In this document: positions 79-14,459 of the stretch, piece by piece
Numbering within the stretch: position 1 is the first letter of the stretch
Layout: every line of letters starts with the position of its first letter
Origin: an uncultured Deinococcales bacterium
Lineage (GTDB): Bacteria; Deinococcota; Deinococci; Deinococcales; JAAFIG01
Assembly (NCBI GenBank): GCA_964247135.1
Contig: CAXTTL010000124.1
Coordinates: 1-14,459 of the forward strand
Length of the DNA stretch: 14,459 bases
Direction of reading: 5' to 3'
Notes under the pieces: model-generated
What the model saw: only the letters and a program-made list of their open reading frames with translations
Databases searched by the model: none
What the model was told of the DNA's origin: nothing
Position numbers and translations under genes: made by a program

Positions 79-516
79 CTAATCGTAATCTTGAAACTCG
101 AGTTTTGGTTTTTTCGCGGCTTGCTTGGCGCGTTTTTCGGCTGCCAGTTGCTCGAGCAGCGAACTCGTGCGCTCGAGTGAACCTGTCAGGGTTTCTTTGG
201 CTTCAATCACGGTTTCCTCGAGCAGCAAGTCACGGTATTTTGCCCAGTCGGAAGTGTCGGTTTGCAAGGTTTTGAGGCTGGAGGCGGTGCTGAGCCAGCC
301 CAGAAGCGGTTCGGTGGTGTCAATGTCGCGTTCCTCGAGTGCGGCTCGGGCGAGTTCGACACTTGGTTCGTTGTTGTTCATCCAGGCATGAAGCGCTTTG
401 GCTTTGACGTCCAGAATCTCGAGCACCATGTCTTCAAACCCCTCAGTATCCAGTACCGCCTCGAGAAAGGCATCTGGGGTGATCTGGGTTTTGGATTTGG
501 TCTGGCGTTTTGCCAT
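79..516 (-). CDS. Hypothetical protein, 145 aa, acidic helical core with basic patches near both termini
   Basis: Protein-like composition; ATG lies 6 nt downstream of a TAAAAT -10 box (leaderless layout); no family motif recognised. Confidence 0.8.
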   Translation of the reverse strand: MAKRQTKSKTQITPDAFLEAVLDTEGFEDMVLEILDVKAKALHAWMNNNEPSVELARAALEERDIDTTEPLLGWLSTASSLKTLQTDTSDWAKYRDLLLEETVIEAKETLTGSLERTSSLLEQLAAEKRAKQAAKKPKLEFQDYD

Positions 517-522
517 GAACGT

Positions 523-528
523 ATTTTA
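523..528 (-). promoter_or_regulatory. -10 box TAAAAT, leaderless promoter of 79..516
   Basis: Minus strand TAAAAT-ACGTTC-ATG; no Shine-Dalgarno. Confidence 0.65.
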
Positions 529-676
529 CACTTGGGTCCGAACCGTGGATGGGTTGATGGCATTTCGGTGACAATTCACAAACACAAACTTTTTTGACCA
601 GCACGCAAATTTGAACTCGAGTTGCAATCAGGAATCCGTGTCTTGTTGGATACCAAACGATTTTTGCCAAGCCCCA

Positions 677-682
677 TAGACT
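677..682 (+). promoter_or_regulatory. -10 box TAGACT, leaderless promoter of the hydrolase
   Basis: TAGACT-GCGGGTC-ATG (7-nt gap); no Shine-Dalgarno. Confidence 0.6.
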
Positions 683-689
683 GCGGGTC

Positions 690-1853
690 ATGAACAAAAT
701 TCTATTGATGGTCGGTTCAAGCCTCGCGCTTGCCACTGCGGTCATGACCTCCGATGTCAACGCCGCCCCGCGTCCTGACGCTCCACCGCTCGCGCTTCGC
801 GGTTCGCATTCGGTTGGGGTTCGCACCCTGCAAATTCTCGATGCCAGCCGCAAGCGTCCTCTCACGCTCGAGGTGTGGTATCCAGCCAAACTGGAAGCCA
901 ACCAAACCGAGAGCACCGTTTACAAAGCCACGATTGGCAGCACCAAATTTGATCTGCCAGGACAAGCGTTCAGAGATGCCAATCTAGAGGCGGGCAAATT
1001 CCCACTCGTCATCCTCTCGCACGGACAGGCAGGCTCGAGGTTTGTCATGACCTACTTGACCGAACACCTCGCCTCACAAGGTTTTGTGGTTGCCGCAATT
1101 GACCACACGGGCAGCACTTACGACGACATCACGCCTCCCGCTTATATCTCAAGCTTGGTGGATCGCCCATTGGACATGCTTTTTAGCATCAATGAGGTTG
1201 CCAAAGCCGTACCGACCAGCGACGGCAATAACGTTGCCCTGATGGGTTACAGCTACGGTGGTTATACCGCCTTGAACGCCGCCGGAATTGGTTTGGACAA
1301 AGCCAATTTGACCGATTACTGCAAAACCTCCAACAACGAAGGACCGTGTTTCGCCCTGCCGTACTTCGACAGTTTAACGCCAGCCCGAGGCTCGAGCACT
1401 GTCAAACCCGACCCTCGGGTCAAAGCCGTGTTTGTGATGTCTCCCTACGGCATCCCGTGGTTGAGCACCGAGCAATTCAAAAGTATGCGCGTGCCGTTGT
1501 TTGTTGGCGGCGGCGAAAACGATGACGTTGCCGTTTTTAAGCGCGATGCGCAACAAGCCTTCAACCTCTCAGGCTCGAGCAGCAAATACCTGTTGTCGCT
1601 GGCTTCGGCTTCGCACAACATTTTTACCAATAACCCACCAGAATCGGTCAGAAACAACTGGACGGATTACGAGCGTTGGTTTGAACCCGTCTGGGATCGT
1701 GAACGCGTGAACGACATTGCCAAGCATTTTGCCACCGCGTTCTTGAAGCAAAACCTCTTAAAAGACTCAAGCATGGATCAATATTTGACCAGCAAATTGA
1801 ACGGTTTCTTGCCCCGCACGACCATTGGCGTGAAGCTCGAGACTGGGAAGTAA
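690..1853 (+). CDS. Secreted alpha/beta hydrolase (predicted dienelactone hydrolase / PAF-acetylhydrolase-like), 387 aa
   Basis: Signal peptide MNKILLMVGSSLALATAV; family motifs LEVWYPA, FPLVILSHG, LASQGFVVAAIDH; nucleophile elbow GYSYGG; candidate Asp (GENDDVA) and His (ASHNIF). Confidence 0.9.
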   Translation: MNKILLMVGSSLALATAVMTSDVNAAPRPDAPPLALRGSHSVGVRTLQILDASRKRPLTLEVWYPAKLEANQTESTVYKATIGSTKFDLPGQAFRDANLEAGKFPLVILSHGQAGSRFVMTYLTEHLASQGFVVAAIDHTGSTYDDITPPAYISSLVDRPLDMLFSINEVAKAVPTSDGNNVALMGYSYGGYTALNAAGIGLDKANLTDYCKTSNNEGPCFALPYFDSLTPARGSSTVKPDPRVKAVFVMSPYGIPWLSTEQFKSMRVPLFVGGGENDDVAVFKRDAQQAFNLSGSSSKYLLSLASASHNIFTNNPPESVRNNWTDYERWFEPVWDRERVNDIAKHFATAFLKQNLLKDSSMDQYLTSKLNGFLPRTTIGVKLETGK

Positions 1854-1876
1854 ACACGAAGTAAAAAGCTGAGAGT

Positions 1877-1917
1877 AAACATCCCCACCTCGAGATGAGA
1901 TGGGGATGTTTGGTTTT
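1877..1917 (+). terminator. Intrinsic terminator of the hydrolase gene
   Basis: AAACATCCCCA (1877-1887) pairs with TGGGGATGTTT (1901-1911), followed by GGTTTT; a CTCGAG lies in the apical part. Confidence 0.75.
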
Positions 1918-1932
1918 GAATCGCACAAACTT

Positions 1933-2138
1933 AAGTTTTAACTGGGTTTGCTCTTGAAGGTTGAAATCTTGGACGAATCAAGTCGAAAATCCATCTCGAG
2001 AACATCAAGCCATGAAGCCATGTGGTCCAAGTTTCAACCGGTAGCAAGGTCTTGAAGGTTGAAATCTTGGACGAATCAAGTTGTTACTAGATTTCACAAA
2101 TTTCAGTTGTTAAGTCATGTGGTCCAAGTTTTAACCGG
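1933..2138. repeat. Non-coding dual-repeat array, period 97-98 nt
   Basis: X=TCTTGAAGGTTGAAATCTTGGACGAATCAAGT identical at 1952-1983 and 2050-2081; Y=AAG(C/T)CATGTGGTCCAAGTTT(C/T)AACCGG at 2015-2041 and 2112-2138 (25/27), partial Y at 1933-1945; unrelated 31- and 30-nt spacers between X and Y. Confidence 0.9.
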
Positions 2139-2146
2139 CAACACTG

Positions 2147-2176
2147 AAAACCGCCTCGAGAAATTCTCGAGGCGGT
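2147..2176 (-). terminator. Intrinsic terminator of the csp gene built from two CTCGAG arms
   Basis: ACCGCCTCGAGAA-A-TTCTCGAGGCGGT (2150-2176), ending in TTTT on the minus strand, 17 nt after the csp stop. Confidence 0.85.
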
Positions 2177-2193
2177 AGCGTGGTTGAGGTCAA

Positions 2194-2403
2194 TTAAAGA
2201 ACTGTAACGTTAACAGCCTGCGGACCTTTGCCGTTCTTGCCCTCTTCGCTCTCGAAGGTCACGCGTTGACCCTCTTCGAGGTTACGGTAGCCCGAACCCT
2301 TGATCGCCGAAAAGTGGACGAACAAATCTTTTCCACCCTCGTTTGGCGTGATGAACCCAAAGCCTTTTTCACCGTTGAACCACTTCACTGTACCTTCTGG
2401 CAT
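2194..2403 (-). CDS. cspA: Cold-shock protein, CspA family, 69 aa
   Basis: [18 protein letters not shown] (RNP1), DLFVHFSAI (RNP2), GPQAVNV; ATG at 2403 has GGAAAGG upstream, so the track start at 2460 is too far upstream. Confidence 0.97.
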
Positions 2404-2469
2404 TTGATGCCTTTCCGCACGAACTGCAAAAACAGCGTGCCCAGCCAACAAGACTGGCATTCCCTAACG

Positions 2470-2521
2470 TGTACCGTTCTGGAATGATTAAATTATAGCA
2501 CAAGAATTCTAAAACGGTACA
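2470..2521 (-). promoter_or_regulatory. csp promoter (extended -10 TGCTATAAT, TATAAT at 2492-2497) flanked by a 16-bp imperfect inverted repeat
   Basis: Perfect TATAAT with TGn extension gives an ~80-nt 5' UTR, as is typical of csp mRNAs; arms 2470-2485 and 2506-2521 match 14/16. Confidence 0.7.
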
Positions 2522-2622
2522 TTTAACTTTACTGAAGGTGGCAATAGTAGCGTCAGCACAAGAAGTTTTGAAATTCCTCGAGCTTTGGTAGCAGCAAATC
2601 TTGCGGCAATCTCGAGCCTCAA

Positions 2623-3003
2623 TTATGGTTTTGGCGGTTGTGCTGGTGGTTTGCAATCTGGGATTGCACCTGTGATGCTCAGGGTTAGCTCGGTTTGACT
2701 TGCCTGATAACCCAGGGCGGTGGAGGTCAAAACACCGTTTAAGTACGGTTTGTTGTCCCGAATAACGAATGGCAGTTTGAATATCTTGTCGCACAACCGC
2801 ACGGTGACCTCAAACCGTTCGATTTTGATCATACTCGCGCCCAAGGTTGTCAGAAAATCTTTTGGCGAGACAAACAACACGTGATCGTCAACAAAACCCG
2901 TTAAGCTCGAGTGTTTGCCGTTGAAATTCAGGCAGATGCCATTCGCCAGGGCGACACCCAGAAAGACAGTGTAAATGCTCAAAAACCCAATGATCTGTTT
3001 CAC
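2623..3003 (-). CDS. Small secreted protein, possibly copper-amine-oxidase N-terminal/stalk-like domain, 126 aa
   Basis: GTG start with GGGGAG SD; signal peptide ending ALA; repeated pattern LFVSPKDFLTTLGA / PYLNGVLTSTALGY resembles stalk-domain repeats; TAAAAT at 3043-3048. Confidence 0.7.
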   Translation of the reverse strand: MKQIIGFLSIYTVFLGVALANGICLNFNGKHSSLTGFVDDHVLFVSPKDFLTTLGASMIKIERFEVTVRLCDKIFKLPFVIRDNKPYLNGVLTSTALGYQASQTELTLSITGAIPDCKPPAQPPKP

Positions 3004-3147
3004 AATTTCTCCCCGTTTTCAAGCTCGAGCCGAGAATGTCGTATTTTAAACCCAAGATTATTGTTGAGCGCAACGTCATGAAAACCAGCCGTCGATCACG
3101 TCTCAATTTCAGTTACAATCAATGGGTTTCACTTGGGGAGCAAAAAA

Positions 3148-4023
3148 ATGACCAAACTGGCTGTCGTTCAAATGTCCATGACCAACAACTTCGAGCATAA
3201 CGTCGAAAAAGCCATTTCGCTGGTTCGTGATGCTGTATCGCAGGGCGCGAATCTGGTGTTGCTGCCAGAATTGTTCGAGAATTTATATTGGTGTCAGGTG
3301 CAACGCGAGCAGTATTTTAGCCTAGCCAATCCGCTCGAGTCGCATCCGTTCATTCCAAAATTCCGAGCACTTGCCAAAGAGCTGAACGTGGTTTTGCCGA
3401 TTTCATTTTTTGAACGCGCCAACCAGGCGTATTTTAATTCGCTGGTCATGATTGATGCTGGCGGCGAGCTGCTCGGGCTGTACCGCAAATCGCACATTCC
3501 TGACGGTCCTGGGTACACCGAAAAATACTATTTCAACCCTGGCGATACGGGTTTTAAAGCATTCCCGACAAACGCTGGCAACGTGGGCGCGGGCATTTGC
3601 TGGGATCAGTGGTATCCAGAGTCCGCTCGAGCGATGGCATTGCAGGGCGCGGAAATCTTGCTGTACCCGACCGCCATCGGCAGCGAACCCGAAAGTGCCG
3701 GCACGCCCGACACGCGTCACATGTGGCAACGCGTGATGATCGGTCATGCCGTGGCAAACTTATGTTATTTGGGCGCAGCCAACCGTGTCGGCACTGAAAC
3801 CGTCGAAGGATTGGAGCAACGTTATTACGGCTCGAGTTTTATTTGCGATTACACCGGCGAGAAAATGGCTGAAGCCTCCGACAGCGAAGAAACCGTGCTG
3901 ATCGCCGAACTCGACCTCGAGAAAGCCAGGAATTTCAGAGCAAGTTTTGGTTTTTTCAGGGATCGCCGCCCCGAGTTGTACCAGAGCTTGTTAACCCTTG
4001 ATGGCAAAACGAGAAGAGCCTAA
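3148..4023 (+). CDS. aguB: N-carbamoylputrescine amidase (carbon-nitrogen hydrolase family), 291 aa
   Basis: Triad Glu (LPELF), Lys (YRKSHIPDGPGYTEKYYF), Cys (GICWDQWYPE); LLYPTAIGSEP is typical of AguB; ATG at 3148 with GGGGAG SD; TACAAT at 3114-3119. Confidence 0.9.
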   Translation: MTKLAVVQMSMTNNFEHNVEKAISLVRDAVSQGANLVLLPELFENLYWCQVQREQYFSLANPLESHPFIPKFRALAKELNVVLPISFFERANQAYFNSLVMIDAGGELLGLYRKSHIPDGPGYTEKYYFNPGDTGFKAFPTNAGNVGAGICWDQWYPESARAMALQGAEILLYPTAIGSEPESAGTPDTRHMWQRVMIGHAVANLCYLGAANRVGTETVEGLEQRYYGSSFICDYTGEKMAEASDSEETVLIAELDLEKARNFRASFGFFRDRRPELYQSLLTLDGKTRRA

Positions 4024-4026
4024 AAA

Positions 4027-4056
4027 GAATCTCGAGCATTATGGCGCTCGAGATTC
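4027..4056. terminator. Hairpin between convergent aguB and roadblock operon, with CTCGAG arms
   Basis: GAATCTCGAGC-N8-GCTCGAGATTC, 11-bp stem; preceding A-run gives a U-tail on the minus strand. Confidence 0.75.
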
Positions 4057-4081
4057 GCTAATTACTATCTGCTAATCGCTA

Positions 4082-4441
4082 TCAAGCCTTCGCAGCCTCT
4101 TCAAGTCTCGGCAAATACTTTTTCAACTGAAATCGCACCCGTCCAAGATTCTGGCTCGAGTCTAGCGTTGCCAGCAAGCTGGTTTCACCGATGGGGGAGA
4201 GCAGCACCGGACCCTCTTCAAATTCGACCATGACTTGATTGACGTCGCCTTTGCCAAAAAATTCGGACAGGGCTTGGCTGGCGGCAAAACTCGAGGTGGC
4301 AACCCCACCCAGAAAGTCCAGGTCGATGTCGTAGCCTTCGGCGGTGGCGCTTTCGATCACAAAACCGTCATGTCCGACCAAAGCGGCGCTGGTCAGTCCT
4401 TTGATTTGGACGATTTCCTCGAGCAGGGTTCTTAAATCCAT
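4082..4441 (-). CDS. Roadblock/LC7 (MglB-like) protein, 119 aa
   Basis: GLTSAALVGHDGFVIES, QVMVEFEEGPVLL, NLGRVRFQLKK; ATG at 4441 follows GAGGTG SD. Confidence 0.88.
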   Translation of the reverse strand: MDLRTLLEEIVQIKGLTSAALVGHDGFVIESATAEGYDIDLDFLGGVATSSFAASQALSEFFGKGDVNQVMVEFEEGPVLLSPIGETSLLATLDSSQNLGRVRFQLKKYLPRLEEAAKA

Positions 4442-4465
4442 GAATATCACCTCTGGGTTGAATCT

Positions 4466-4816
4466 TTACTCGAGGTCTTGCACGAGTTGCAAAGCCAGGC
4501 GTGCCATTTCGATTTGCAAATTGCGCAGGTCTGCGCCGCGTTGGGCGGCGACGGTGAGCGAGTGTTTACTGCCGACCCGAATCGAGATGACCTCGAAGGC
4601 GTCGGTGGTGAACGCAATTCTGAACAGTTGTCCAAGGCGCAGTTGGGTGCTGGCATGGCTGGTCACCCGCACCAAACTGGCGGTTTCGGCGGCAAGACCG
4701 GCGGGTGAAACCACCGCGCCGCCAACGCTTTCAATCTCGAGTCCAGCGTCGGAAACCAGGGTTGCGGTCACGACATTGGGCATTGAAGCCAAGGATGCCA
4801 GCCATTTGACCGCCAT
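4466..4816 (-). CDS. Roadblock/LC7 protein, 116 aa
   Basis: VVTATLVSDAGLEIES and GADLRNLQIEM fit the roadblock pattern; start overlaps the upstream stop (TAATG). Confidence 0.8.
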   Translation of the reverse strand: MAVKWLASLASMPNVVTATLVSDAGLEIESVGGAVVSPAGLAAETASLVRVTSHASTQLRLGQLFRIAFTTDAFEVISIRVGSKHSLTVAAQRGADLRNLQIEMARLALQLVQDLE

Positions 4817-5178
4817 TAGCTCAGCACCTCGCGCAAGGATTTCAGTGCCAGGTCGCTCATCAGTCGGGCTTTGCCGATGTTGCCGCTCGGCTCGAGGGTC
4901 AGGGTCAAGAAAAAATCTGGCGTGATTTGTACGGTATAACCTATCAACTTTTGGCTGATGATCAGGACTTCACTGACCTTGCCAGCGTCAAGGCTGCTTT
5001 GATAAGCGATGCCGGCGTTGCGCAGCAAATTCGAGTGTTCTGCCACAATGCTCGAGAAGTCAAGTTTGGTTTCATTGGAAAATTGTTCGACCAGCAATCC
5101 ATCCATGCCGCCAATGGCAGCACCGATTGCCCCATCGACGTTCGAGACCAGGTTTGAGAGTATCTTGTCGAGTTCCAC
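4816..5178 (-). CDS. Roadblock/LC7 protein, ~120 aa
   Basis: VDGAIGAAIGGMDGLLVE and GNIGKARL; probable GTG start at 5178, 8 nt after TAGACT (5187-5192). Start position uncertain. Confidence 0.85.
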   Translation of the reverse strand: MELDKILSNLVSNVDGAIGAAIGGMDGLLVEQFSNETKLDFSSIVAEHSNLLRNAGIAYQSSLDAGKVSEVLIISQKLIGYTVQITPDFFLTLTLEPSGNIGKARLMSDLALKSLREVLS

Positions 5179-5288
5179 TGTGTTGCAGTCTAACCGAATT
5201 TTGAATCTTGGCATGTGCATTTTGAGCGTCTTCGATTTTTGGTCTTGGGTTCAGCTCGAGTGCAATGCCGTGCTGGTGGTCTGCGTTC

Positions 5289-5318
5289 TGAGAACGTTCT
5301 CATTGAATTCTGTATAAT
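5289..5318 (+). promoter_or_regulatory. Perfect 14-bp palindrome TGAGAACGTTCTCA (LacI-family-like operator) at the -35 position of a TATAAT promoter
   Basis: Palindrome at 5289-5302 with central CG; TATAAT at 5313-5318. Confidence 0.6.
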
Positions 5319-5324
5319 TTGCAT

Positions 5325-5418
5325 GTCGGAACAAGCGATTGAAGACCCATCGCTTTCGGTGCGAACCGCGAGCGATTTGGAGTTGTCTACGGCATTCGGT
5401 TTTGCCGTCTGTTTTTTT
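5325..5418 (+). ncRNA. Candidate sRNA or cis-regulatory leader (~94 nt) ending in a terminator-like hairpin
   Basis: Starts ~6 nt after TATAAT; GNRA-capped stem 5349-5376; hairpin ACGGCA/TGCCGT (5389-5408) plus T7 (5412-5418). No Rfam family recognised. Confidence 0.45.
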
Positions 5419-5520
5419 GACCTATATCTTGTACTAGTTTTCACGTATGATGGCGGCAGTTCAAACTTGAGGAATTTTCTCCAGAGTGTAGCCATCATCG
5501 TCTCAGATAAGGAGTAAGCA

Positions 5521-6690: not shown

Positions 6691-6698
6691 ACGACAAA

Positions 6699-6738
6699 AA
6701 AATCTCGAGCCTGGGTTATTTTCCAGGCTCGAGATTTT
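6699..6738. terminator. Bidirectional terminator with CTCGAG arms between pfkB and the rhodopsin operon
   Basis: AAAATCTCGAGCCTGG-N8-CCAGGCTCGAGATTTT, perfect 16-bp stem with U-tails on both strands. Confidence 0.9.
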
Positions 6739-6757
6739 GATTTGAGATGATAGGATT

Positions 6758-6985
6758 TTAGGTTTCAGATGTTTTGGTCTGGATGGTAGCGAGCGTGTAG
6801 AGGTAGCCCACAACCAGCAGCATCTCGAGCGCATACACGGCGCGTAAGGTCAGCAGGCGTGGACTTGCGCCAAAGCCGCCAACAGCATCCACAGCCAATG
6901 TACCGAGCACCAGCGCCATCAAAATCCAACCAGCCGTTTCTTGTCGTTTCAGAATAAACCGCTTGATCTGCGTCAATTCAATCAC
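6758..6985 (-). CDS. Small two-TM membrane protein, 75 aa, overlapping the rhodopsin stop
   Basis: GTG start overlaps the last 8 nt of the rhodopsin gene; hydrophobic segments GWILMALVLGTLAVDAVGG and AVYALEMLLVVGYLYTLATI; exactly fills the gap to the terminator. Confidence 0.65.
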   Translation of the reverse strand: MIELTQIKRFILKRQETAGWILMALVLGTLAVDAVGGFGASPRLLTLRAVYALEMLLVVGYLYTLATIQTKTSET

Positions 6986-7814
6986 CCGCCAATGCTGGGG
7001 TCAGTGCTTTGTCGGCGGCGGTTTTCTCGAGCGCAATGAAATAAATCAAAACACCGAAGCCCGCCTTGGCGATGATGTCCGCCAGGCTGTAACCAACTTG
7101 AAGTCCGACCACACCACTGGCGCTCAGACCACCAAACACGGCGGGCAAGAGGTATGCGAGCGGGTAAAAACCCCACGAGAAAATCAACAACAGTCGCAAG
7201 TTGCGAACCAAGACTTTGACATACTCGGGTTGACGATCCAAAGAGTTGCTCAGTTCGCTCCAGAGGACAAACAAAATGTAGACGAAGGGAATGGTGCTGA
7301 TTGTTCCCCAGACCAGACGCGTGGTGTTGTCGCTCGAGACTTCGCCTGGGTATCCGGTGGCGATCATCACCACGGCGGCAATCACCAAACGACCAATCAA
7401 ACCAGCCGAGATGTTACGTGCCAATGCCAGCACCGAGACTGCTTCGACAAGGAGCAGCGGCACGGTCAAAATCCAATCGGCGTAACGGTAGGCATCGTTG
7501 AACGGAACGCCGGTGGGGTTGTAAGCGCCGTTCACAAGGGCATACGATTCGTTCCAGGAGTTAAAAATTCGCACGTAATGGTAGCAGGCGACCGCCACCA
7601 CCAGCGCCGTGACCAGCATGGCGGGTCGGTATTTTTCGGCAAGTGACTGACGACCCAGCACAAAGAAGATAAAAGATGCACCCATTGTGGCGATGGTGAT
7701 TGAAAAAAGTTGGTAAACCAATCCAAACTGCCCAGAAGTCAATTGAATTCCTGCTGCGAATGAACTTGATCCAAACAAAACAAATACTGTCAATAACATC
7801 AGCCACTTTTTCAT
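6978..7814 (-). CDS. Microbial rhodopsin, xanthorhodopsin/Gloeobacter-rhodopsin clade, DTE outward proton pump, 278 aa with N-terminal signal peptide
   Basis: FNDAYRYADWILTVPLLLVE (DTE), helix B His in YHYVRIF, TGYPGE, WGTISTIPF, WGFYPLAY, retinal lysine in DIIAKAGFG; ATG at 7814 with GGAGGA SD at 7820-7825. Confidence 0.96.
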   Translation of the reverse strand: MKKWLMLLTVFVLFGSSSFAAGIQLTSGQFGLVYQLFSITIATMGASFIFFVLGRQSLAEKYRPAMLVTALVVAVACYHYVRIFNSWNESYALVNGAYNPTGVPFNDAYRYADWILTVPLLLVEAVSVLALARNISAGLIGRLVIAAVVMIATGYPGEVSSDNTTRLVWGTISTIPFVYILFVLWSELSNSLDRQPEYVKVLVRNLRLLLIFSWGFYPLAYLLPAVFGGLSASGVVGLQVGYSLADIIAKAGFGVLIYFIALEKTAADKALTPALAGD

Positions 7815-8155
7815 AATGATCCTCCGTGTCGTTACAAAAAATAGAAAGGTTTCAAGCATTGTAAAAAGGCTCGAGCAGTAAAAAATGATTTTTGCAAACA
7901 ACTTCTAAAGTTTATACAACTCAACCTTATACACGTGAAGTCTATTGCACACTCTAATTTCTGATTTTACTGCAATTGAATGGTAGCTCGAGATTCAATT
8001 CCTTGATCGAATTTGTATAACCTTTGGAAAATAGCTTTACTGCACAGCTTTTTACGGCAATGCTCGAGTTTAAGCAATCATGTTTTTTGGTTGACGAAGC
8101 CCGATTTGGCGCATCGTCGCATCGAGAATCCGGTACCAATTATTCCAAAGACTTG

Positions 8156-9364
8156 TTAATCCAGCACCGCTCGAGCCAGACGTTTGACGCCCTCCTCGAT
8201 TTGTTCCGTGCTGGGCGTGGCAAACGACAGACGCAAGTAATTGGCTTTGGGATTGCCAGGAAAAAACGGCACGCCAGGCACGTAAATCACGCCGTTGTCC
8301 ACGGCTTTTTGCACCATGCTCATCGTGTCCACGCCCGCCGCCATTTTCGCCCACAAGAACATGCCGCCATCGGGTTTGTTGAACTCGAGCGTTCCCGCCG
8401 GAAAATGCTCTTCCAATGCCGCGATCATGGCATGACCTTTGGCGCCGTAGGTGCTGCGAATTTTCGGCAGTTGCGCCTGCAAGCGTCCAGTCTCGAGGTA
8501 ACGCGCCGCGACGTGCTGGCTAAAGGTGCTGGTGTGCAAATCGGCGGCTTGTTTGGCAATGGTCACGGGTTGCACCAGCCCTTCTGGCAGAAGCATCCAA
8601 CCCAGCCGTAACCCTGGCGCGACAAATTTAGACAAGGTGGAAAAGTACGTGACCCACTCGCTCGAGCCGTCCACAAAAGCAGTCAGACCCACCAATGGCG
8701 GCAGGATTTCGCCGCTAAAACGCAACTCGCTGTACGGATCGTCCTCGATCACCAGCACCTGGTATTTAACCGCCAGCTCGAGCAATTTTTTGCGCCGCTC
8801 GAGCGAGAGTGTCGCGCCGCTCGGGTTGCCAAAGGTTGCCACGGTGTAAATAAATTTGGCTCGGCGCCCCTCGGCTTGCAGTGCCTGCAATTGCTGCTCG
8901 AGGTCGTCGGGGTTAAGACCATCGGCGTCAATTTCGATGCCGCGCAATTCGGCTTGGTACATTTCAAAGACCTGCACCGCCGCCAAATAGGCGGGGCGTT
9001 CGACCAGCACCACATCGCCAGGGTCAACCAGAATTTTGGCGATCACATCGATGGCTTGCTGCGAACCCGTGGTGACAATCAGATTGTCTGGTGACAGTCC
9101 AGATGCACCTCGAGACGCCATGATGTCGATCAGGTGGTTTTTCAGAACATCGTAACCGTCCGTTGGACCGTATTGCAGGGTCGCCTGCGGGTTTTGCTCG
9201 AAGGCATCGAGTGCCGCCTGGCGAATGCCCTCAATGTCAAACAACTCTGGGGCAGGCAAACCACCCGCGAAAGAAATGATGTCCTTGCGTACTGCCACCT
9301 TTAAAACTTCACGAACGAACGAGGGCTTGACACCGGACATCCTGCTTGCGAGTGGATAAGACAT
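8156..9364 (-). CDS. PLP-dependent class I/II aminotransferase (LysN/2-aminoadipate transaminase-like), 402 aa
   Basis: ISFAGGLPAPELF, TTGSQQAID, FGNPSG, IEDDPY, PLP lysine in STLSKFVAPGLRLGW, LRLSFA; no HTH. ATG at 9364 is 6 nt after TACAAT (9371-9376). Confidence 0.93.
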   Translation of the reverse strand: MSYPLASRMSGVKPSFVREVLKVAVRKDIISFAGGLPAPELFDIEGIRQAALDAFEQNPQATLQYGPTDGYDVLKNHLIDIMASRGASGLSPDNLIVTTGSQQAIDVIAKILVDPGDVVLVERPAYLAAVQVFEMYQAELRGIEIDADGLNPDDLEQQLQALQAEGRRAKFIYTVATFGNPSGATLSLERRKKLLELAVKYQVLVIEDDPYSELRFSGEILPPLVGLTAFVDGSSEWVTYFSTLSKFVAPGLRLGWMLLPEGLVQPVTIAKQAADLHTSTFSQHVAARYLETGRLQAQLPKIRSTYGAKGHAMIAALEEHFPAGTLEFNKPDGGMFLWAKMAAGVDTMSMVQKAVDNGVIYVPGVPFFPGNPKANYLRLSFATPSTEQIEEGVKRLARAVLD

Positions 9365-9573
9365 GCGTTGATTGTACGATGTTTGAAAGCGATTGGCGAA
9401 ACCCAAATCTGTTGTTGCTTTGAAAACTCGAGCATTCTGAAACCCATCAAGTCAGTGCCTCAGCTCTGGGATGTTCGGGTCCTCAATGGTATTTTTTCTC
9501 GGGGCTTGTGGCGATACTCTTGCTGTTTCGCGCCTGACCAAGTTTCTCGAGCGTAACGCGCTAAAATGCTGGC

Positions 9574-10488
9574 ATGAAGTTTTTGTTGCGATGCTTGATT
9601 TTGCTGCTCACGTTCGGTTTCGGCACGAATGCCTTGGCGCAACTCTCGTACCCGCCAGCCAAATTTGCGAATGCGTTCAAAGCCAAATTGACTGGCTCGG
9701 GTTTTAAGCTTGGCAATGCCAGCATCAAACTCGAGGTTATCAATGGCTTGGTCACAGGACTGTCTTACGAGGGTGCAAGGGACGATCTGAAAACTGTAGC
9801 CTTGGTCATTGCAGGAGCGCTCGAGCATCCAGAAAACGCGGCTGGACTTGAAACCAACCTGAGAAACAGCGCCAACCGCTTTCGTGATGTGGGCACGGTC
9901 ACGCCAGGTTTAACGCCGGAAACGGTGCTCGAGTTGCGTTGGGCAAAAACCTTTGTTTTTCGGTTGAACTTGAAACGCTTTTCTGGCTTTGGACCGGACC
10001 GCCACGTCATGGGCAAGGGTGGCGTGATGATTCGGGAGTTCAGCGATTTTGAATGCCCGTTTTGCAAGCAGTTGATGCTGCAAACCATGCCAGGTCTCAG
10101 GGCAAAATTTGTCAATACCGGCTTGGCGCGTTTTGCCTTTCATCACCTGCCCTTGACCAGCATTCACCCCCAGGCGCTCGAGGCTGGAATTGCCGCCGAA
10201 TGCGCGGGAGCGCAAGGTAAATTTTTTGCCTATCACGATCTGTTGTTTGCCCTGGGATTAAACGATTTTCAAAATTTGGCTCGAATCACGCAACTCAATG
10301 TCGGGGTTTTTAACCAGTGCCTGAAATCAGTCTCGAGCAAACAGGCGGTGCTGGACGAAGCCAGCTATGCCCAAAAATTGCAAATCAATGCCACGCCGAC
10401 CGTGTTTGTTGGACCGTTTCAACTCGCCAATGCAAACGACCTGAACGCCTATGCCAGATACCTGAAAATGGCGAAAGGTTTGGAATAA
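9574..10488 (+). CDS. Secreted DsbA-family thiol-disulfide oxidoreductase with an N-terminal extension, 304 aa
   Basis: Signal peptide ending ALA; EFSDFECPFC, HLPLTSIHP, AAECAGAQGKFFAYHDLLF, cis-Pro loop NATPT; TAAAAT at 9562-9567, 6 nt before ATG. Confidence 0.92.
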   Translation: MKFLLRCLILLLTFGFGTNALAQLSYPPAKFANAFKAKLTGSGFKLGNASIKLEVINGLVTGLSYEGARDDLKTVALVIAGALEHPENAAGLETNLRNSANRFRDVGTVTPGLTPETVLELRWAKTFVFRLNLKRFSGFGPDRHVMGKGGVMIREFSDFECPFCKQLMLQTMPGLRAKFVNTGLARFAFHHLPLTSIHPQALEAGIAAECAGAQGKFFAYHDLLFALGLNDFQNLARITQLNVGVFNQCLKSVSSKQAVLDEASYAQKLQINATPTVFVGPFQLANANDLNAYARYLKMAKGLE

Positions 10489-12774
10489 TCAGGCTCGAGT
10501 TGACTTCAGGTTTTTGGGTGACTTGGTTTTGCGCTTGACCTTGTCGCGGTACATCAATGCGTCGGCGTGTTTGTACAAAGCGTCGGCATCCGCGCCGTCT
10601 CGAGGGTAGATTGCCAAACCGACGCTGGCGCTGACCGTCAAGGTCTCTTTGCCAGCATCCAGACCAATTTTGAGGTTTTGGGTGATGTCTTGCCTCAAGT
10701 TTTCGCTCGGGACGCTGTCGGTTAAATCGGGCAGAATCAAACAAAATTCGTCGCCGCCAAGCCGCGCCACGGTGTCCGAAGCCCGCACAAAACTTTGCAG
10801 TTGAACGCCAATGTCGCGCAGCAGCCGGTCGCCGACCGAATGCCCCAAGCCATCATTGACGGCTTTGAAACCGTTTAAATCGATAAACAACACCCCCACC
10901 AAACTGCCGTTGCGATCCGCCCTGGCAATCGCTTGTTGCAAACGGTCGTGGTACAAAACACGGTTGGGCAAACCCGTCAAAGCATCGTGAAGCGCTTGAT
11001 ACTCGAGTTTTTGAATCAGTGAATGGCGCTCGATGGCAATCGCTGCCAGATCAGCCGCCGCTTTTTGCTGGGTTCGCAAATCCAAACCCCAGTGTTCGTT
11101 GCGGGTGTAACTGGTGAGCGTTCCCAAAATCAGACCGCTGCTGGTCATGATCGGCAGCGCGGCACAATGCTTGTACCCAGCCTGAATCAGCGTCGCGCGG
11201 TACTCGAGCGACCAACGGTCATCGGTGCCAAGGTTTTCAATGTATTGCGCCTCGCCGGTGCGCACCGCCACGCTGCACGGATCACCGCCCGCAGCGTCAA
11301 GGCACTCCAGCAAATCATCGGTCACATCGCGGGTCGCCACGTAACTCAAATGCCCCTCCTCGAGCAAACTGATCTGGGCGCCCAAACCAGGAAATTGTTC
11401 GGTCAGCATTTCCAGATTCATCTCGAGCAATGTGGCAATTTTTACACCCCGCGCAATCCCTTCGAGCACGCGGTTGCGACCGCGCTCGAGAATTTGGGCG
11501 CGTTTACGATCTGTGATGTCCACGATCAAACCCCGCACCAACCGAGGGCGGTTGGGTTCGATAAAGCCAACCGCGCGGTCTTGAACCCAACGCACCTCCC
11601 CGTCAGGTCTGATGATTCGGTACTCGCCTTCGACCACGGTCAGTTGTTCCGCCGCTTTCATGAAAGCACCGACCACCAATTTACGATCCTCGGGATGAAT
11701 CATGCCCATCCAAAAACGGGTCGAACCCAGCATTTGCTCCGATGCCACACCCAGCATGGCTTGGCTTTGAGGACTGACAAAGGTAAACTGGGCGACATCT
11801 TGGGAGTACAACTCGGCTTCCCAAACAACCCCTGAAACATTCTCGACCAAGTCGCGGTAACGGGCGCGTGACTTGTTGAGATCGCGTTCGGCATTCTTGG
11901 CGTCGGTGATGTCACGTTCAATTAATATTGTGCCACCGGACCAAATCGGAGCCAGCCTCGCCTCGAGGTTGCGTTCACCCGTCGGATACATCAGGCTGTA
12001 CTCGAGATCACCGACCTTGCCGCGTTCTTGCACGCGCTTTAATGCTTGTTCGATCAAGCTCACCACCGATTCTGGGTAAACATCACGAAGGTGTTTATCG
12101 ACCATCCAAGACCCGTCCGCCCCAGGCACACGAACGTCCTGAATTTGACCTCGGGCGTCAAGCCTGTACACCGTGTCGGGCAGCGCATCAAGGATGGCTT
12201 TGGCGCCCGCCTCGCTCAAGGTCAGGCGCTCTTCGATTTGCTTGCCGCGCCTCAGTTCGGTGCTGAGTTGCGCAATCTCACGGGTTTTTGCCATGAACGG
12301 CGCGGCGAGGTTGGCGATCATTTCGACAAACGCAATCTCTTCGGGATCAAAGCTTCTTGCCTCGAAGAAATCCAAAGCAAACGAGCCGAGCATCGTCCCG
12401 TGCGAAACCACAGGCACAAGCAAGGTGGCAATCACACCAAATGGCTTAAAAATCTCTTGAATGTTTTGTGGAAGTTGCCCTGTATCAACAATCGCAATTG
12501 GTTTGAGGTCACGCATCAATTGTCGTCCGACATCATCGATGGCAATTCGTCTGCCCACATTGGAAACCCCACCAGAATTGAATTCGGCAACAATCAAAAG
12601 CTCCTTGTGGTCACTCGAGAGTTGCGCGAAATTGGATTGCGGAATGCCAAGTGCCAGCGCCAGCCGTTTACAAACCACCGTTAAAAATTCTTTCGGACTG
12701 AGGGTCAACGCCGAGGTCACGGTTTTTAAAACGTCCAATTGACGCTCGAGGTTGAGTGGTGTGTTGTTGTTCAT
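10489..12774 (-). CDS. Diguanylate cyclase, GAF-PAS-PAS/PAC-GAF-GGDEF, ~761 aa
   Basis: HDALTGLPNR, FIDLNGFKAVNDGLGHSVGD, I-site RASD, RLGGDEF; PAS motifs IHPEDR and YRIIRPDGEVRWV; no EAL domain. Start at ATG 12774 is preferred but uncertain. Confidence 0.93.
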   Translation of the reverse strand: MNNNTPLNLERQLDVLKTVTSALTLSPKEFLTVVCKRLALALGIPQSNFAQLSSDHKELLIVAEFNSGGVSNVGRRIAIDDVGRQLMRDLKPIAIVDTGQLPQNIQEIFKPFGVIATLLVPVVSHGTMLGSFALDFFEARSFDPEEIAFVEMIANLAAPFMAKTREIAQLSTELRRGKQIEERLTLSEAGAKAILDALPDTVYRLDARGQIQDVRVPGADGSWMVDKHLRDVYPESVVSLIEQALKRVQERGKVGDLEYSLMYPTGERNLEARLAPIWSGGTILIERDITDAKNAERDLNKSRARYRDLVENVSGVVWEAELYSQDVAQFTFVSPQSQAMLGVASEQMLGSTRFWMGMIHPEDRKLVVGAFMKAAEQLTVVEGEYRIIRPDGEVRWVQDRAVGFIEPNRPRLVRGLIVDITDRKRAQILERGRNRVLEGIARGVKIATLLEMNLEMLTEQFPGLGAQISLLEEGHLSYVATRDVTDDLLECLDAAGGDPCSVAVRTGEAQYIENLGTDDRWSLEYRATLIQAGYKHCAALPIMTSSGLILGTLTSYTRNEHWGLDLRTQQKAAADLAAIAIERHSLIQKLEYQALHDALTGLPNRVLYHDRLQQAIARADRNGSLVGVLFIDLNGFKAVNDGLGHSVGDRLLRDIGVQLQSFVRASDTVARLGGDEFCLILPDLTDSVPSENLRQDITQNLKIGLDAGKETLTVSASVGLAIYPRDGADADALYKHADALMYRDKVKRKTKSPKNLKSTRA

Positions 12775-12892
12775 GGTTTGAAAGTTTGTGGCATCAAAAC
12801 GAATCAAACGCCCGAGCGGGCGGGTTCAAAAGTGCAAGCAGGTTGGTATCCGAATTCAACATAGATTCTAGCGCAATCAACGCGGCTCGAGC

Positions 12893-14041
12893 TTAAGTGG
12901 TGTACTCGGCATTGATCTTGACGTAACCCTCGGTCAGGTCGCAACCCCACGCCTCGCCAGTGCCCGCGCCCGTGCCCAAATCGCAAGCCACAATCACCTC
13001 AGGTTCACGCATGGCATTCGAGACAGCCTGTCGGTCAAACTCGAGCGGTGTGCCATCAAAAACGGCGATGCCCTGAATTGAAACCTTGGCGTTTAAAGGT
13101 TCAAAGCTCACACCGCTGCGCCCGAGTGCCGCCAGAATCCGACCCCAATTTGGGTCGTTACCGTAAACCGCCGCCTTAAACAAACTCGAGCCTGCCACGG
13201 TTTTTGCCGCCATCAGCGCGTCAGATTCGCTCGGTGCGCCAGTCACTTTGACCGTCAGGAGTTTGGTCGCCCCCTCGCCGTCTCGGGCAATCGCTCGAGC
13301 CAAATCGCGCATCACACTTTCGATGGCAATCAGGGCTTCGCCCGAATCCGTCTCTCCCGCCGCGCCGTTGGCGAGAACCACCGTCATGTCATTGGTGCTG
13401 GTGTCACCGTCCACCGTCACGGCATTGAACGTGCGGTTGACAATCCCAACAAAGGCTTCACGCAAAACGTCTTGCTCGAGCCTGGCATCGGTCAGCACAA
13501 ATGAGAGCATGGTCGCCATGGTCGGATGAATCATCCCCGAACCCTTGCAGACCCCGACCACCCTCGCGCCACTTGAGAGTGTTCGCTCAGAAATTTTCAT
13601 GACCAAATCGGTGGTCATGATGGCGCTCGCCGCAGGCTCGAGTTCCAGTCCCAGCGCTGCGCCAGCCGCCGGAATACCAGCCTCGAGTTTTGAGACGGGC
13701 AATTGCACCCCAATGACCCCAGTGCTGGCGGTCATGACTGCATCAGGCTCGAGCTTGAGTTCCCCTGCCGTGATGGCTGCCATTTTCGCATCGGTTTGGA
13801 TGCCTTGCTCGCCCGTGACGCAGTTGGCATTGCCCGCATTGACCACGATGGCTTGCAAACTTTTATTGCCAGCGTACAGTGCCCGACCACGCTGCACACT
13901 GGCGGCAACCGCCAGATTTTGCGTTCCAGCGAACGCCCAGGCGCAGGGCGTCCCGCTGACGAACAGCGCCAAATCAGGATTGCCCGAGGGTTTGATGCCC
14001 GCTTTAACGCCAGATGCCCGAAAACCGATAGGTAATTTCAC
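12893..14041 (-). CDS. argJ: Ornithine acetyltransferase / bifunctional glutamate N-acetyltransferase ArgJ, 382 aa
   Basis: VNAGNANC, ASTGVIG, IMTTD, autocleavage site KGSGMIHPTMA/TML, DGDTSTND, DGEGATK, DPNWGR, YVKINAEYTT; GTG at 14041. Confidence 0.97.
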   Translation of the reverse strand: MKLPIGFRASGVKAGIKPSGNPDLALFVSGTPCAWAFAGTQNLAVAASVQRGRALYAGNKSLQAIVVNAGNANCVTGEQGIQTDAKMAAITAGELKLEPDAVMTASTGVIGVQLPVSKLEAGIPAAGAALGLELEPAASAIMTTDLVMKISERTLSSGARVVGVCKGSGMIHPTMATMLSFVLTDARLEQDVLREAFVGIVNRTFNAVTVDGDTSTNDMTVVLANGAAGETDSGEALIAIESVMRDLARAIARDGEGATKLLTVKVTGAPSESDALMAAKTVAGSSLFKAAVYGNDPNWGRILAALGRSGVSFEPLNAKVSIQGIAVFDGTPLEFDRQAVSNAMREPEVIVACDLGTGAGTGEAWGCDLTEGYVKINAEYTT

Positions 14042-14048
14042 ACGAACG

Positions 14049-14057
14049 AGTGTATCA
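14049..14057 (-). promoter_or_regulatory. Extended -10 TGATACACT, leaderless promoter of argJ
   Basis: Minus strand TGA-TACACT-CGTTCGT-GTG (7-nt gap); no Shine-Dalgarno. Confidence 0.65.
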
Positions 14058-14300
14058 GAACAGGTGCTTTCGGGCAAAAATGAAGCTGGCGGCAGAATCG
14101 CCCACTCAAATCTCGAGGGGCATAGCGAGCGTTGCGCATCTCGAATCGCGGTTTGATCGGATTTTTGTATCAGCCAAGCGAATAATCATTTGCTCGCGGC
14201 TCGAGTTTTAAGGTTGGCAAAACCTGACCAGTTGTTCGAGAATCTAAATGTTTGAATTTCGATGCAGAATTAATTGTTGTAAATCCGAGTCTCATGCAGC

Positions 14301-14363: not shown

Positions 14364-14459
14364 TTACTTTTTTGCGGCTGGCTTTTTCGCGGCTGGTTTG
14401 GCTGCGGCTTTAGGAGCTGCTTTGGCGGCGGCTTTAGGAGCTGCTTTCGCGGCTGGTTT
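14364..14459 (-). CDS. 3' end of a gene with a histone-H1-like tail (KPAAKAAPKAAAKAAPKAAAKPAAKKPAAKK*)
   Basis: 32 codons in frame to TAA at 14364-14366; 20-nt direct repeat at 14404-14423 and 14428-14447; parent protein lies outside the window. Confidence 0.8.
   Translation of the reverse strand, partial: KPAAKAAPKAAAKAAPKAAAKPAAKKPAAKK

Follow-up and report, generated by a model that had tools for sequence, protein, structure and literature searches.

CTCGAG is a HIP1-like iterated palindrome maintained by whole-site fixation bias in a family of Deinococcales

We observed that CTCGAG is a real, HIP1-like iterated palindrome in a family of Deinococcales, and that it is maintained by a fixation bias acting on the whole site. 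A directional force on the DNA itself, which reads the intact hexamer, holds its density. The best overall explanation, to which we assign a probability of roughly 60%, is a palindrome of the HIP kind that is kept by a DNA-level force, probably through a factor other than methylation or very-short-patch repair.

The window, that is, the whole stretch of 14,459 nucleotides that was analysed, contains exactly 84 CTCGAG sites spanning 97 to 14205, where a sequence-only reading had counted about 84. That reading had also expected about 4 sites, and this was correct because the mononucleotide expectation is 3.88. Dinucleotide-preserving shuffles of the window gave a mean of 2.85 sites (s.d. 1.70, largest 10), and none of the 200 shuffles reached 84. 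The features are listed below.

97..14205, no strand: dispersed array of 84 CTCGAG sites, from word count and shuffles
Site starts, part 1: 97, 151, 172, 217, 334, 418, 460, 616, 867, 1034, 1391, 1574, 1836, 1889, 1995, 2155, 2166, 2577, 2611, 2906, 3024
Site starts, part 2: 3334, 3626, 3831, 3916, 4031, 4047, 4155, 4290, 4418, 4469, 4736, 4891, 5051, 5255, 5569, 6055, 6097, 6142, 6424, 6704, 6728
Site starts, part 3: 6824, 7026, 7333, 7870, 7987, 8063, 8170, 8384, 8492, 8661, 8777, 8798, 8897, 9109, 9427, 9546, 9730, 9820, 9928, 10177, 10332
Site starts, part 4: 10494, 10599, 11002, 11203, 11359, 11422, 11485, 11962, 12001, 12614, 12745, 12886, 13040, 13185, 13294, 13475, 13637, 13682, 13748, 14112, 14200
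867..872, plus strand: example of phase 0, CTC-GAG (Leu-Glu), inside the alpha/beta-hydrolase gene 690-1853
3626..3631, plus strand: example of NCT-CGA-GNN, inside the CN-hydrolase gene 3133-4023
3831..3836, plus strand: example of NNC-TCG-AGN (Ser-Ser/Arg), inside the CN-hydrolase gene 3133-4023
6704..6829, no strand: stretch with intergenic sites at 6704, 6728 and 6824, flanked by the PfkB kinase and rhodopsin genes
12893..14077, minus strand: ArgJ gene with 7 CTCGAG, whose site positions were mapped over 19 genomes of the order

The sites were said to occur in genes of both strands, in intergenic DNA and in all three codon phases, and we found the same (63 coding and 21 non-coding); all six phase examples given (867, 1034, 1391, 1574, 3831 and 3626) were right by the gene calls. 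Among the 63 coding sites, 43 are read as CTC-GAG, 6 as NCT-CGA-GNN and 14 as NNC-TCG-AGN. The 21 non-coding sites lie in 2,429 non-coding bases, which corresponds to 8.6 per kb.

The source genome carries 33,925 CTCGAG in 5,091,702 bases (6.7 per kb, about one per 150 bp). This is 24.8 times the mononucleotide expectation, above the observed/expected ratio of >16 given as the HIP threshold in the available text of Xu et al. 2018 (PMC5861425). The ~20-fold excess claimed earlier is real, and its size was understated (25-fold genome-wide). CTCGAG is the commonest hexamer of the genome by more than 2-fold and makes up ∼4% of all bases. Its abundance extends well beyond the window, with 2.6–10.5 sites per kb in every one of the 297 contigs that reach 5 kb, and even the poorest of 825 5-kb segments has 8. 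The word is dispersed through coding and non-coding DNA without a longer repeat unit, at 7.05 per kb in intergenic regions against 6.58 per kb in genes, and its density along genes is almost flat. Mobile DNA is poorer in the word, as seen for conjugation genes on contig C75 and an IS element on contig C17.

Junctions at XhoI sites could in principle have produced such a pattern as a library or assembly artefact, but the chance of this is practically nil. CTCGAG lay within 30 bp of 106 of the 772 contig ends, compared to 118.8 expected. In-frame sites occur within conserved genes, at positions shared by the orthologues of five species whose assemblies are separate, the same sites recur at orthologous positions in independently assembled genomes including the single 5.09-Mb contig of G011, and the trait is present in 21 genomes. 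We found no support for this reading and consider it refuted.

The view that the excess simply follows from codon, dicodon or amino-acid usage, or from other words being avoided, is likewise refuted and has almost no probability left. Two observations seem to speak for it: the Leu-Glu phase accounts for 63% of the coding sites, and the maximal-order Markov ratio, calculated by hand, is near 1. The latter reflects the dominance of the motif within its own sub-words. Against it, intergenic regions contain 6,453 sites compared to 205 expected (31-fold). Shuffling of synonymous codons leaves 3,839 of the 27,428 coding sites, about one seventh, and the observed phases (17,209/4,009/6,210, phase 0 first) compare with 3,016/279/544 after shuffling, which leaves the other two phases 11–14-fold enriched. 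Synonymous and intergenic positions are protected (see below), and genome G158 (GC 0.51) has no excess. The earlier statement that protein composition alone is not the explanation is borne out by the intergenic excess, the shuffling and the protected synonymous sites.

The proteome carries the imprint of the word. CTC supplies 25% of the Leu codons and GAG 46% of the Glu codons of the source genome, whereas 17,209 of its 22,259 Leu-Glu pairs (77%) are written CTCGAG. The observed/expected ratio of Leu-Glu is 2.36, the highest of all dipeptides, against 1.02 for Glu-Leu and 0.96 for Leu-Glu in 80 unrelated loci. The force acting on CTCGAG has been strong enough to create Leu-Glu pairs in proteins.

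We compared the source genome with a species of the same genus (85% DNA identity, 625 kb aligned). CTCGAG was identical in the congener in 6,716 of 8,185 cases (82%), compared to 45.6% of all hexamers, and ranked 1 of 1,124 hexamers in the first 302 kb of the alignment. Conservation thus exceeds that of control words, and the synonymous and intergenic tests indicate that it does not come via codons. The third base of CTC was kept in 906/979 cases before GAG and in 635/1,008 otherwise; that of GAG was kept in 938/984 after CTC and in 920/1,241 otherwise, and the combination of a CTN codon other than CTC with a following GAG was kept in only 8/39. Intergenic CTCGAG were kept in 219/304 cases against 38.8% of intergenic hexamers; within the window, 4 of 5 species retain the intergenic site at 6824. 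Per-base differences over 582 intergenic sites were 6.6, 7.7 and 8.2% at half-site positions 1–3, and the background was 17.5% at C/G and 15.6% at A/T. Taken together, synonymous and intergenic bases change 2–5 times slower inside the word than outside it, with equal protection at the three half-site positions that covers transversions too. One-step variants were kept only in 10–37% of cases, and for 18–30% of them the second genome reads CTCGAG. CTTGAG/CTCAAG are not depleted (1.17-fold of expectation genome-wide, 1.50-fold intergenic). The proposal that a sequence-specific process acts on CTCGAG holds at the DNA level, as judged from the synonymous protection, the shuffling and the 31-fold intergenic excess.

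Singletons polarised among 5 species, in the window only, were 30 loss-like and 14 gain-like, which does not demonstrate the equilibrium of sites that the preferred reading assumes. A few of the gains in the window need 3–4 simultaneous changes. As a source of new sites, multi-base events were rejected: at least 3 differences were seen in 3.7% of cases compared to 6.3% of all hexamers over the 625 kb.

The conserved unit is a bare 6-bp word with a weak G before it and a weak C after it. Around intergenic sites this preference is symmetric (G at −1, 0.36; C at +1, 0.37), in the source genus A at −3 and T at +3 (each 0.42) are also preferred, and flank information stays at or below 0.1 bit per position. 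A dispersed repeat element of the REP or MITE type was ruled out, the flanks being unconserved beyond these weak single-base preferences. Spacing is near-exponential (CV 0.96), with pairs 3-fold depleted at 7–12 bp and back to about 1 by 40–60 bp, and gaps of 200–400 bp slightly fewer than the exponential distribution predicts. The symmetric flanks and the short-range depletion may point to a symmetric reader that leaves a footprint; the depletion could alternatively stem from protein constraints or from slippage that deletes DNA between direct repeats. Up to 400 bp there was no helical or longer periodicity, and only the 3-bp period was seen.

The trait extends well beyond the source genome. 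All 19 genomes of its family carry 4.3–6.8 CTCGAG per kb. In another family, G156 and G157 reach 8.6 and 7.0 per kb, whereas their congener G158 has 0.3, without an excess despite similar GC (0.51). The word also ranked 1 of 180 words of the same composition in samples of G042, G265 and G180, and the word is enriched to a lesser degree in several further lineages of the order. The lineage to which the sequence-only reading had assigned the process is indeed enriched, but the trait is wider, reaching from the entire family to two species of a second one and, more weakly, to other lineages of the order. The other 63 palindromes stand at 0.26–0.48 of expectation in the enriched genomes and at 0.85 in G158. 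The ArgJ gene carries 6–9 sites in family genomes, 10–11 in G156 and G157 and 0–2 in eight low-range orthologues, and at several of the site positions other lineages have residues other than Leu-Glu. As most genomes are incomplete MAGs (57–94% complete), an absence from a single genome carries little weight. The source MAG yielded no 16S rRNA gene. Two species at ∼7–9 per kb against a congener at 0.3, together with the graded series in the order, constitute a sharp natural experiment, and the responsible factor is therefore searchable by phyletic profiling.

The methyltransferase-coupled mechanism that the sequence-only reading had suggested is not supported so far: the 19 family genomes contained no XhoI-family nuclease (PF04555), no Vsr endonuclease and no family-wide methyltransferase orthogroup. 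The last result covers PF00145, PF01555, PF02086, PF07669 and PF02384 in 19 partly incomplete genomes. XhoI-family nucleases were found in 3 of 22 other relatives (G021, G033 and G031, outside the family), each with an adjacent methyltransferase, and neither the XhoI-linked methyltransferase of G031 nor that of G021 has a source-genome orthologue. For the TaqI-like enzyme beside the broken XhoI gene of G031, there was no match in the source genome and family matches were only 17–33% identical; for the N6_N4 enzyme beside the XhoI gene of G021, the best source-genome protein was 26% identical over most of its length, with a 68-residue stretch reaching 41%. Both candidates were rejected. The C5 methyltransferases were also set aside, being non-orthologous between genera and <40% identical across the family genera compared; the two in the source genome adjoin NgoPII-like and Eco29kI-like nucleases. 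The D12 enzyme of the source genome is 74.5% identical to one in G157. Its neighbour is a SacI-like nuclease, and orthologues occur in just 7 of the 19 family genomes. The enzyme explains the absence of GAGCTC rather than the excess of CTCGAG. In the single-contig G011 no N6_N4 methyltransferase was found, and its yield was limited to two D12 enzymes, one C5 enzyme and weak matches to the Eco57I family; in G008 no C5 enzyme was found. The weak Eco57I matches of ∼500 aa in G011, G005 and G007 resemble the large PF02384 methylase of the source genome and were therefore read as type I methylase subunits.

These results bear directly on the methyltransferase-coupled mismatch-repair ratchet, in which an orphan methyltransferase marks CTCGAG or its core and methyl-directed repair preferentially fixes changes that create or restore a site. 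It is the model put forward for the closest analogue, HIP1, in the available text of Elhai (PMC4390886). The weak outer G...C preference of CTCGAG recalls the outer G and C of the HIP1 word GCGATCGC, and the trait accompanies methyltransferase-rich genomes that avoid other palindromes. We nevertheless consider the ratchet unlikely. The family is without a spanning orthogroup in the five Pfam families, with the reservation for incomplete MAGs given above; the yields from G011 and G008 were poor, and three methyltransferases of the source genome pair with NgoPII-, Eco29kI- and SacI-like nucleases, which are specific to other words. Protection is equal at the three half-site positions and includes transversions, and thus does not point to one methylated base.

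A bias in DNA uptake or recombination of the DUS/USS type, with machinery that prefers CTCGAG-bearing DNA and sites spreading by molecular drive, shares several signatures with our data, namely genic dispersal in all frames, the peptide imprint, conservation among relatives and scarcity in mobile DNA. Deinococcota contain naturally transformable genera. A 2026 paper, which applied phylogenetic regression to HIP1, makes the case in its available text that HIP1 could serve as an uptake sequence (PMC13756078). However, CTCGAG, with its 6 bp and 6.7 sites per kb, is far shorter and more closely spaced than known uptake sequences, and one extra site among the dozens on kilobase-scale fragments should add little, so that such a drive would be expected to level off well below the density seen here. 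These points make uptake an improbable explanation, and no receptor is known. Weak selection at each site for binding of an abundant dimeric nucleoid-associated or chromosome-organising protein would fit the palindrome with weak symmetric flanks, the exclusion of neighbouring sites up to ∼40 bp, the slight shortage of 200–400-bp gaps and the near-flat density along genes. Xu et al. read HIP1 in this way in the available text (PMC5861425). We give this explanation a low probability: there is no candidate protein, and such selection rarely drives amino-acid replacement at the scale seen here (Leu-Glu 2.4-fold).

As regards the nature of the force behind our preferred reading, alleles with an intact CTCGAG may enjoy a transmission advantage ('drive') as proposed for HIP1 and uptake sequences. 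The drive would come from a candidate symmetric factor that binds or processes DNA while it is recombined, repaired or taken up, and not from restriction-modification, very-short-patch repair of deaminated methyl-cytosine or any recognisably conserved methyltransferase. We hold this version at somewhat below even odds; as no factor was found, its support comes from analogy and from how large the protein effect is. Sequence alone cannot separate drive from ordinary weak selection per site, for example for nucleoid-protein binding. A bolder and more tentative version is that CTCGAG is the recognition word of a methyltransferase-independent Deinococcales system, in which a factor for self-marking, recombination or repair would read the intact palindrome, with lineage-variable strength, and would drive sites to fixation so forcefully that proteins are rewritten. 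Its strength would be very high in the family and in G156/G157, moderate in several other lineages and absent or reversed in the largest genus and G158. If this is true, the contrast of G156/G157 with G158 lets plain comparative genomics find the factor behind words of the HIP type. To our knowledge, thirty years of work have not settled the factor behind HIP1.

Short palindromes of extreme abundance have long been puzzling, and the known cases come mainly from cyanobacteria (HIP1). CTCGAG provides a second, independent case from another phylum, denser and with a clear proteome imprint, and offers a test of whether such words really need methylation. It marks native as opposed to recently acquired DNA in these genomes, and it shifts codon-pair and dipeptide statistics and hence gene finding and binning for the family. 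Literature searches, with supplementary files outside their scope, found no published description of a CTCGAG excess in Deinococcota. A genome-scale excess of the word is described for the honey bee in the available text of PMC3903499.

Among known systems, restriction-modification of the XhoI/PaeR7I type recognises the same word. Restriction predicts avoidance of a word and not its enrichment. With PF04555 not found in the 19 family genomes and the XhoI-linked methyltransferases lacking source-genome orthologues, this system was rejected. Very-short-patch repair of the Dcm/Vsr type, which acts at CCWGG in E. coli, depends on Vsr together with a C5 methyltransferase and has a small effect. It resembles our case in favouring one short word, there a methylated one, over its one-step neighbours, but the effect here is 25-fold and protection is not C-to-T specific. 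This mechanism was also rejected, given Vsr in 0/19 genomes, CTTGAG/CTCAAG undepleted and the three positions equally protected.

The uptake sequences of Neisseria (DUS) and Pasteurellaceae (USS) are 9–12 bp long, non-palindromic, present at ∼1 per kb and often paired in terminators. CTCGAG is like them in being very abundant, on both strands, genic in all frames with a peptide imprint, common to relatives and rarer in foreign DNA, and unlike them in being a 6-bp palindrome at 6.7 per kb, with no 9–12-bp non-palindromic core. The 'HIP1/DUS-like' label of the sequence-only reading stands in the three descriptive respects of HIP1 (excess, dispersal and conservation), and does not extend to the matching methyltransferase of HIPs or to the DUS/USS core.

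HIP1 and the alternate HIPs are accompanied by a matching methyltransferase in the available text of Elhai 2015 (PMC4390886), whereas within the five Pfam families searched no orthogroup shared by the 19 partly incomplete family genomes was found. CTCGAG differs from HIP1 also in phylum, in the word itself (6 bp versus 8 bp) and in the conservation of its one-step variants, which lies below the average rather than above it. It is ∼5–7 times denser by a rough comparison (6.7 per kb against about 1 per kb for HIP1 in the available text of PMC4390886). A chromosomal periodicity of 10–90 kb belongs to the HIP class, and the source genome, in 386 contigs, was examined for periodicity up to 400 bp. 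As far as the available texts describe HIP1 and the alternate HIPs of cyanobacteria (PMC4390886, PMC5861425), CTCGAG is like them a GC-rich palindrome in >16-fold excess in coding and non-coding DNA, conserved between relatives above control words independently of codon use, and lineage-wide with exceptions.

The sequence-only reading had put about 84 copies of CTCGAG in the window, with about 4 expected. We counted 84 in its 14,459 bases against a mononucleotide expectation of 3.88, and 200 dinucleotide-preserving shuffles gave a mean of 2.85 and a maximum of 10. Among the circumstances that, by the same reading, would explain the excess away were confinement to the window and assembly junctions at XhoI sites, and neither was observed. 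The home genome, where the window is contig C124, is a MAG of 5.09 Mb in 386 contigs (52.7% G+C, 84% complete) and carries 33,925 copies (6.66 per kb, 4% of all bases), which is 24.8 times the mononucleotide expectation. CTCGAG ranks first among its hexamers, more than 2-fold ahead, and the words ranked 2 to 10 all overlap it. The density is 2.6–10.5 per kb in all 297 contigs that reach 5 kb, none of 825 5-kb intervals across the genome holds fewer than 8 copies, and contig ends show no enrichment (106 of 772 versus 118.8 expected). TCGA outside CTCGAG occurs at expectation (20,685 observed versus 19,755 expected).

Genes were called with our own codon-usage log-odds model (4,241 genes, 82% of the genome; ORFs below 80 aa were excluded, and 7 genes containing N were omitted from later counts), and the calls within the window match the Pfam hits there. 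Sixty-three of the window sites are coding, on both strands (43 CTC-GAG, 6 NCT-CGA-GNN and 14 NNC-TCG-AGN), and 21 lie within 2,429 non-coding bases. The distribution claimed from the sequence, over both strands, intergenic DNA and all three phases, was thus borne out, and the six codon-phase examples all agreed with the gene calls. Genome-wide, intergenic DNA (48% G+C) has 6,453 copies versus 205 expected, at a density of 7.05 per kb versus 6.58 per kb in genes. The three coding phases hold 17,209, 4,009 and 6,210 copies, versus 3,016, 279 and 544 after a synonymous-codon shuffle within each gene that leaves both its protein and its codon tally unchanged; shuffling codon order leaves 1,631 in all phases together. 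Codon and protein usage therefore fail to account for the excess, as had been argued for protein composition.

The motif has instead left its mark on the proteins. It spells 77% of 22,259 Leu-Glu pairs, although 25% of Leu codons are CTC and 46% of Glu codons are GAG. No dipeptide is in greater excess than Leu-Glu (2.36); the ratio is 1.02 for Glu-Leu, and 0.96 for Leu-Glu in long ORFs from 80 unrelated bacterial loci. Several sites in the window's ArgJ gene read as Leu-Glu at positions where orthologues from other lineages carry, for example, Val-Pro, Ile-Thr or Val-His. Causation runs from DNA to protein, and CTCGAG has shaped the Leu-Glu content.

Conservation was measured against G005, a congener of which 800 kb was aligned to the window's genome by blastn; non-overlapping alignments no shorter than 300 bp and with 75% identity or more were retained (234 pieces, 625 kb, 85.2% identity). 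Of 8,185 CTCGAG present in either genome, 6,716 (82.0%) were identical in the other, versus 45.6% for all hexamers, and in the first 302 kb it was the most conserved of 1,124 hexamers having at least 100 occurrences. Between the window and four congeners, the corresponding values were 76–90% versus 43–47%. Before GAG, CTC kept its third base at 906 of 979 positions, versus 635 of 1,008 otherwise; GAG kept its own at 938 of 984 positions where CTC preceded it, versus 920 of 1,241 otherwise. When another CTN codon preceded GAG, its third base was retained in just 8 of 39 cases, and GAA following CTC was retained in 29 of 60 versus 77.8% elsewhere. Intergenic copies were retained in 219 of 304 cases versus 38.8% for intergenic hexamers. 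At 582 intergenic sites, half-site positions 1, 2 and 3 differed by 6.6, 7.7 and 8.2% per base, the background being 17.5% at C/G and 15.6% at A/T; transitions and transversions were both lowered. The protection acts at the DNA level.

One-step variants proved unstable. They were retained in 10.5% (CTCAAG), 35% (CCCGAG) and 37.5% (CTCGAA) of cases, and the three transition variants were CTCGAG in the other genome in 18–30% of cases. Sites also turn over. Of the 104 window positions where at least one of five congeners has CTCGAG, 42 are shared by the full set and 30 by four, and 14 are confined to a single one. A few gains in the window require three or four simultaneous changes, and over the 625 kb aligned with G005 no excess of multi-change pairs was found at CTCGAG.

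The flanks carry a weak, symmetric signal and nothing else: G(−1) at 0.36 and C(+1) at 0.37 at intergenic sites, with A(−3) and T(+3) at 0.42 each in the window's genus. The G/C preference was seen again in most other enriched genomes sampled, and the A/T preference was not. Density is nearly uniform along genes; genome-wide there is a peak of 12.1 per kb over the 30 bp that follow stop codons versus 6–7 elsewhere, and a dip to 5.6 per kb over the first 30 bp of genes. Spacing is near-exponential (CV 0.96), and its sole period is the 3-bp coding period. Pairs are 3-fold depleted at 7–12 bp, with recovery to about 1 by 40–60 bp, and gaps of 200–400 bp are slightly below expectation. Distance 6 never occurs; it would create GAGCTC, which has no copy in the genome. 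Just 11 pairs have a centre-to-centre distance of 8 (CTCGAGNNCTCGAG), versus 87 and 115 pairs for distances 7 and 9, respectively; a pair at distance 8 would create GAGNNCTC.

The site-poorest regions include an IS element (contig C17) and conjugation genes (C75), which fits foreign DNA still without the word; further site-poor regions hold ordinary sugar-use or protease genes. The C75 region (G000:C75:9000-19000), with its genes for a type IV coupling protein and a TraG-type ATPase, probably represents either an integrative conjugative element or part of a plasmid.

Two other features of the window were recorded:
6978-7901, minus strand, bacteriorhodopsin-like gene (PF01036, E 3e-43), here in a Deinococcota MAG
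14368-14459, the last 90 bases, with three matches, overlapping and offset from one another, in each of two congeners (G005:C35:147028-147239 and G002:C51:1975-2193)
The latter suggests a short tandem repeat downstream of the divergently placed ArgJ gene.

The closest named relatives of the window ArgJ are from Deinococcus species (55–56% identity). All 18 other species of the family in the genome collection used, from five genera, have 4.3–6.8 CTCGAG per kb and almost no GAGCTC. We scanned 364 genomes of 60 genera across the phylum (including the unpublished G327, on which no claim rests) and observed two more hyper-enriched genomes, G156 (8.6 per kb) and G157 (7.0 per kb), from one genus of another family; their congener G158, the third species there, stands at 0.3 per kb. 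In DNA samples of the three (49–56% G+C), observed/expected was 32, 28 and 1.2, respectively. G156 and G157 are basal to their own family in the single-gene ArgJ tree (support 99/98). Many other genera have 2–3.6 per kb. In samples from three of these more weakly enriched genera (G042, G265 and G180), CTCGAG comes first among the 180 hexamers of identical composition and spells 50–63% of Leu-Glu pairs versus 18–21% expected; at two loci of named Deinococcus it spells 1% versus 10% expected. The trait thus varies by degree over the order: it reaches an extreme in two places, and elsewhere it can be absent or reversed. The ArgJ tree puts the sequence of g5, a genus of the window's family, with a genus from a different family (support 100/98) and not with the remaining genera of its own family, indicating either gene transfer or a family that is not one clade for ArgJ.

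Nucleases of the XhoI family turned up in 3 of 22 other relatives and in none of the 19 family genomes, which also yielded no Vsr. The methyltransferases adjoining the XhoI genes are of two kinds, TaqI-like (G031) and N6_N4 (G021 and G033). Neither has an orthologue in the window's genome. Searches for N6_N4 enzymes came up empty in G015 and in G011, a single-contig genome. C5 enzymes occur in 17 of 18 family genomes, being missing from G008 (91% complete), and those compared are below 40% identical across genera. Overall, a search with five Pfam families in MAGs 57–94% complete gave no recognisable methyltransferase tracking the trait.

Three complete-looking restriction-modification pairs were found in the window's genome:
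C320:1061-2985, SacI-like nuclease with a D12 enzyme
C14:36040-37936, NgoPII-like nuclease with a C5 enzyme
C178:2930-4752, Eco29kI-like nuclease with the other C5 enzyme
They fit the near-absence of GAGCTC, of palindromes containing GGCC and of CCGCGG. Apart from CTCGAG, almost every 6-bp palindrome is strongly depleted in the genome, with these copies genome-wide:
GAGCTC 0, GGGCCC 1, CGGCCG 3, AGGCCT 4, CGTACG 5, GGATCC 7, CCGCGG 11
Orthologues of the D12 enzyme occur in only 7 of 19 family genomes, and also in G157. The copy in the window's genome (L155:1411-2244) is 74.5% identical to that of G157 (L196:22-921, C72), compared with 58% for ArgJ, and identities inside the family (93, 84, 78, 76, 76 and 76%) are not ordered by genus; the pair looks like a horizontally moving restriction system. 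The sole C5 methylase found in G011 (L178, G011:C1:4979787-4983683) appears to share an operon with genes for an HD-CE protein and an ORC/CDC6-like ATPase, possibly a defence system.

A force on the DNA favours the intact hexamer. It acts equally on coding and non-coding DNA and on every position of the word, and it is old enough to be shared family-wide and strong enough to alter proteins. We propose that a symmetric reader of the entire site, acting in recombination, repair or uptake, would give intact sites a transmission advantage, a reading to which we assign a probability of roughly 40%. Very-short-patch repair is disfavoured by the equal half-site protection, the undepleted C-to-T neighbours and the failure to find Vsr. 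A ratchet linked to methylation would have to run through an enzyme that the methyltransferase search overlooked, and we consider it unlikely. Bias at uptake in the strict sense appears no less improbable than the ratchet, and plain selection for protein binding is somewhat more doubtful than either. The transmission advantage and these three alternatives shade into one another and are inseparable by sequence alone.

We found no description of a CTCGAG excess in Deinococcota in the main text of openly available papers. The word is listed as enriched in the honey bee genome in PMC3903499, it has been reported as a methylated motif in other phyla, and it is given as a table entry for Halobacteria. 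The closest parallel is HIP1, the hyper-abundant cyanobacterial palindrome. HIP1 comes with an accompanying methyltransferase (PMC4390886), and here CTCGAG differs, none having been recognised with it in the five Pfam families searched. The descriptive criteria in PMC5861425 are an observed/expected ratio above 16, dispersal and conservation beyond that of codons; in all three, CTCGAG resembles HIP1.
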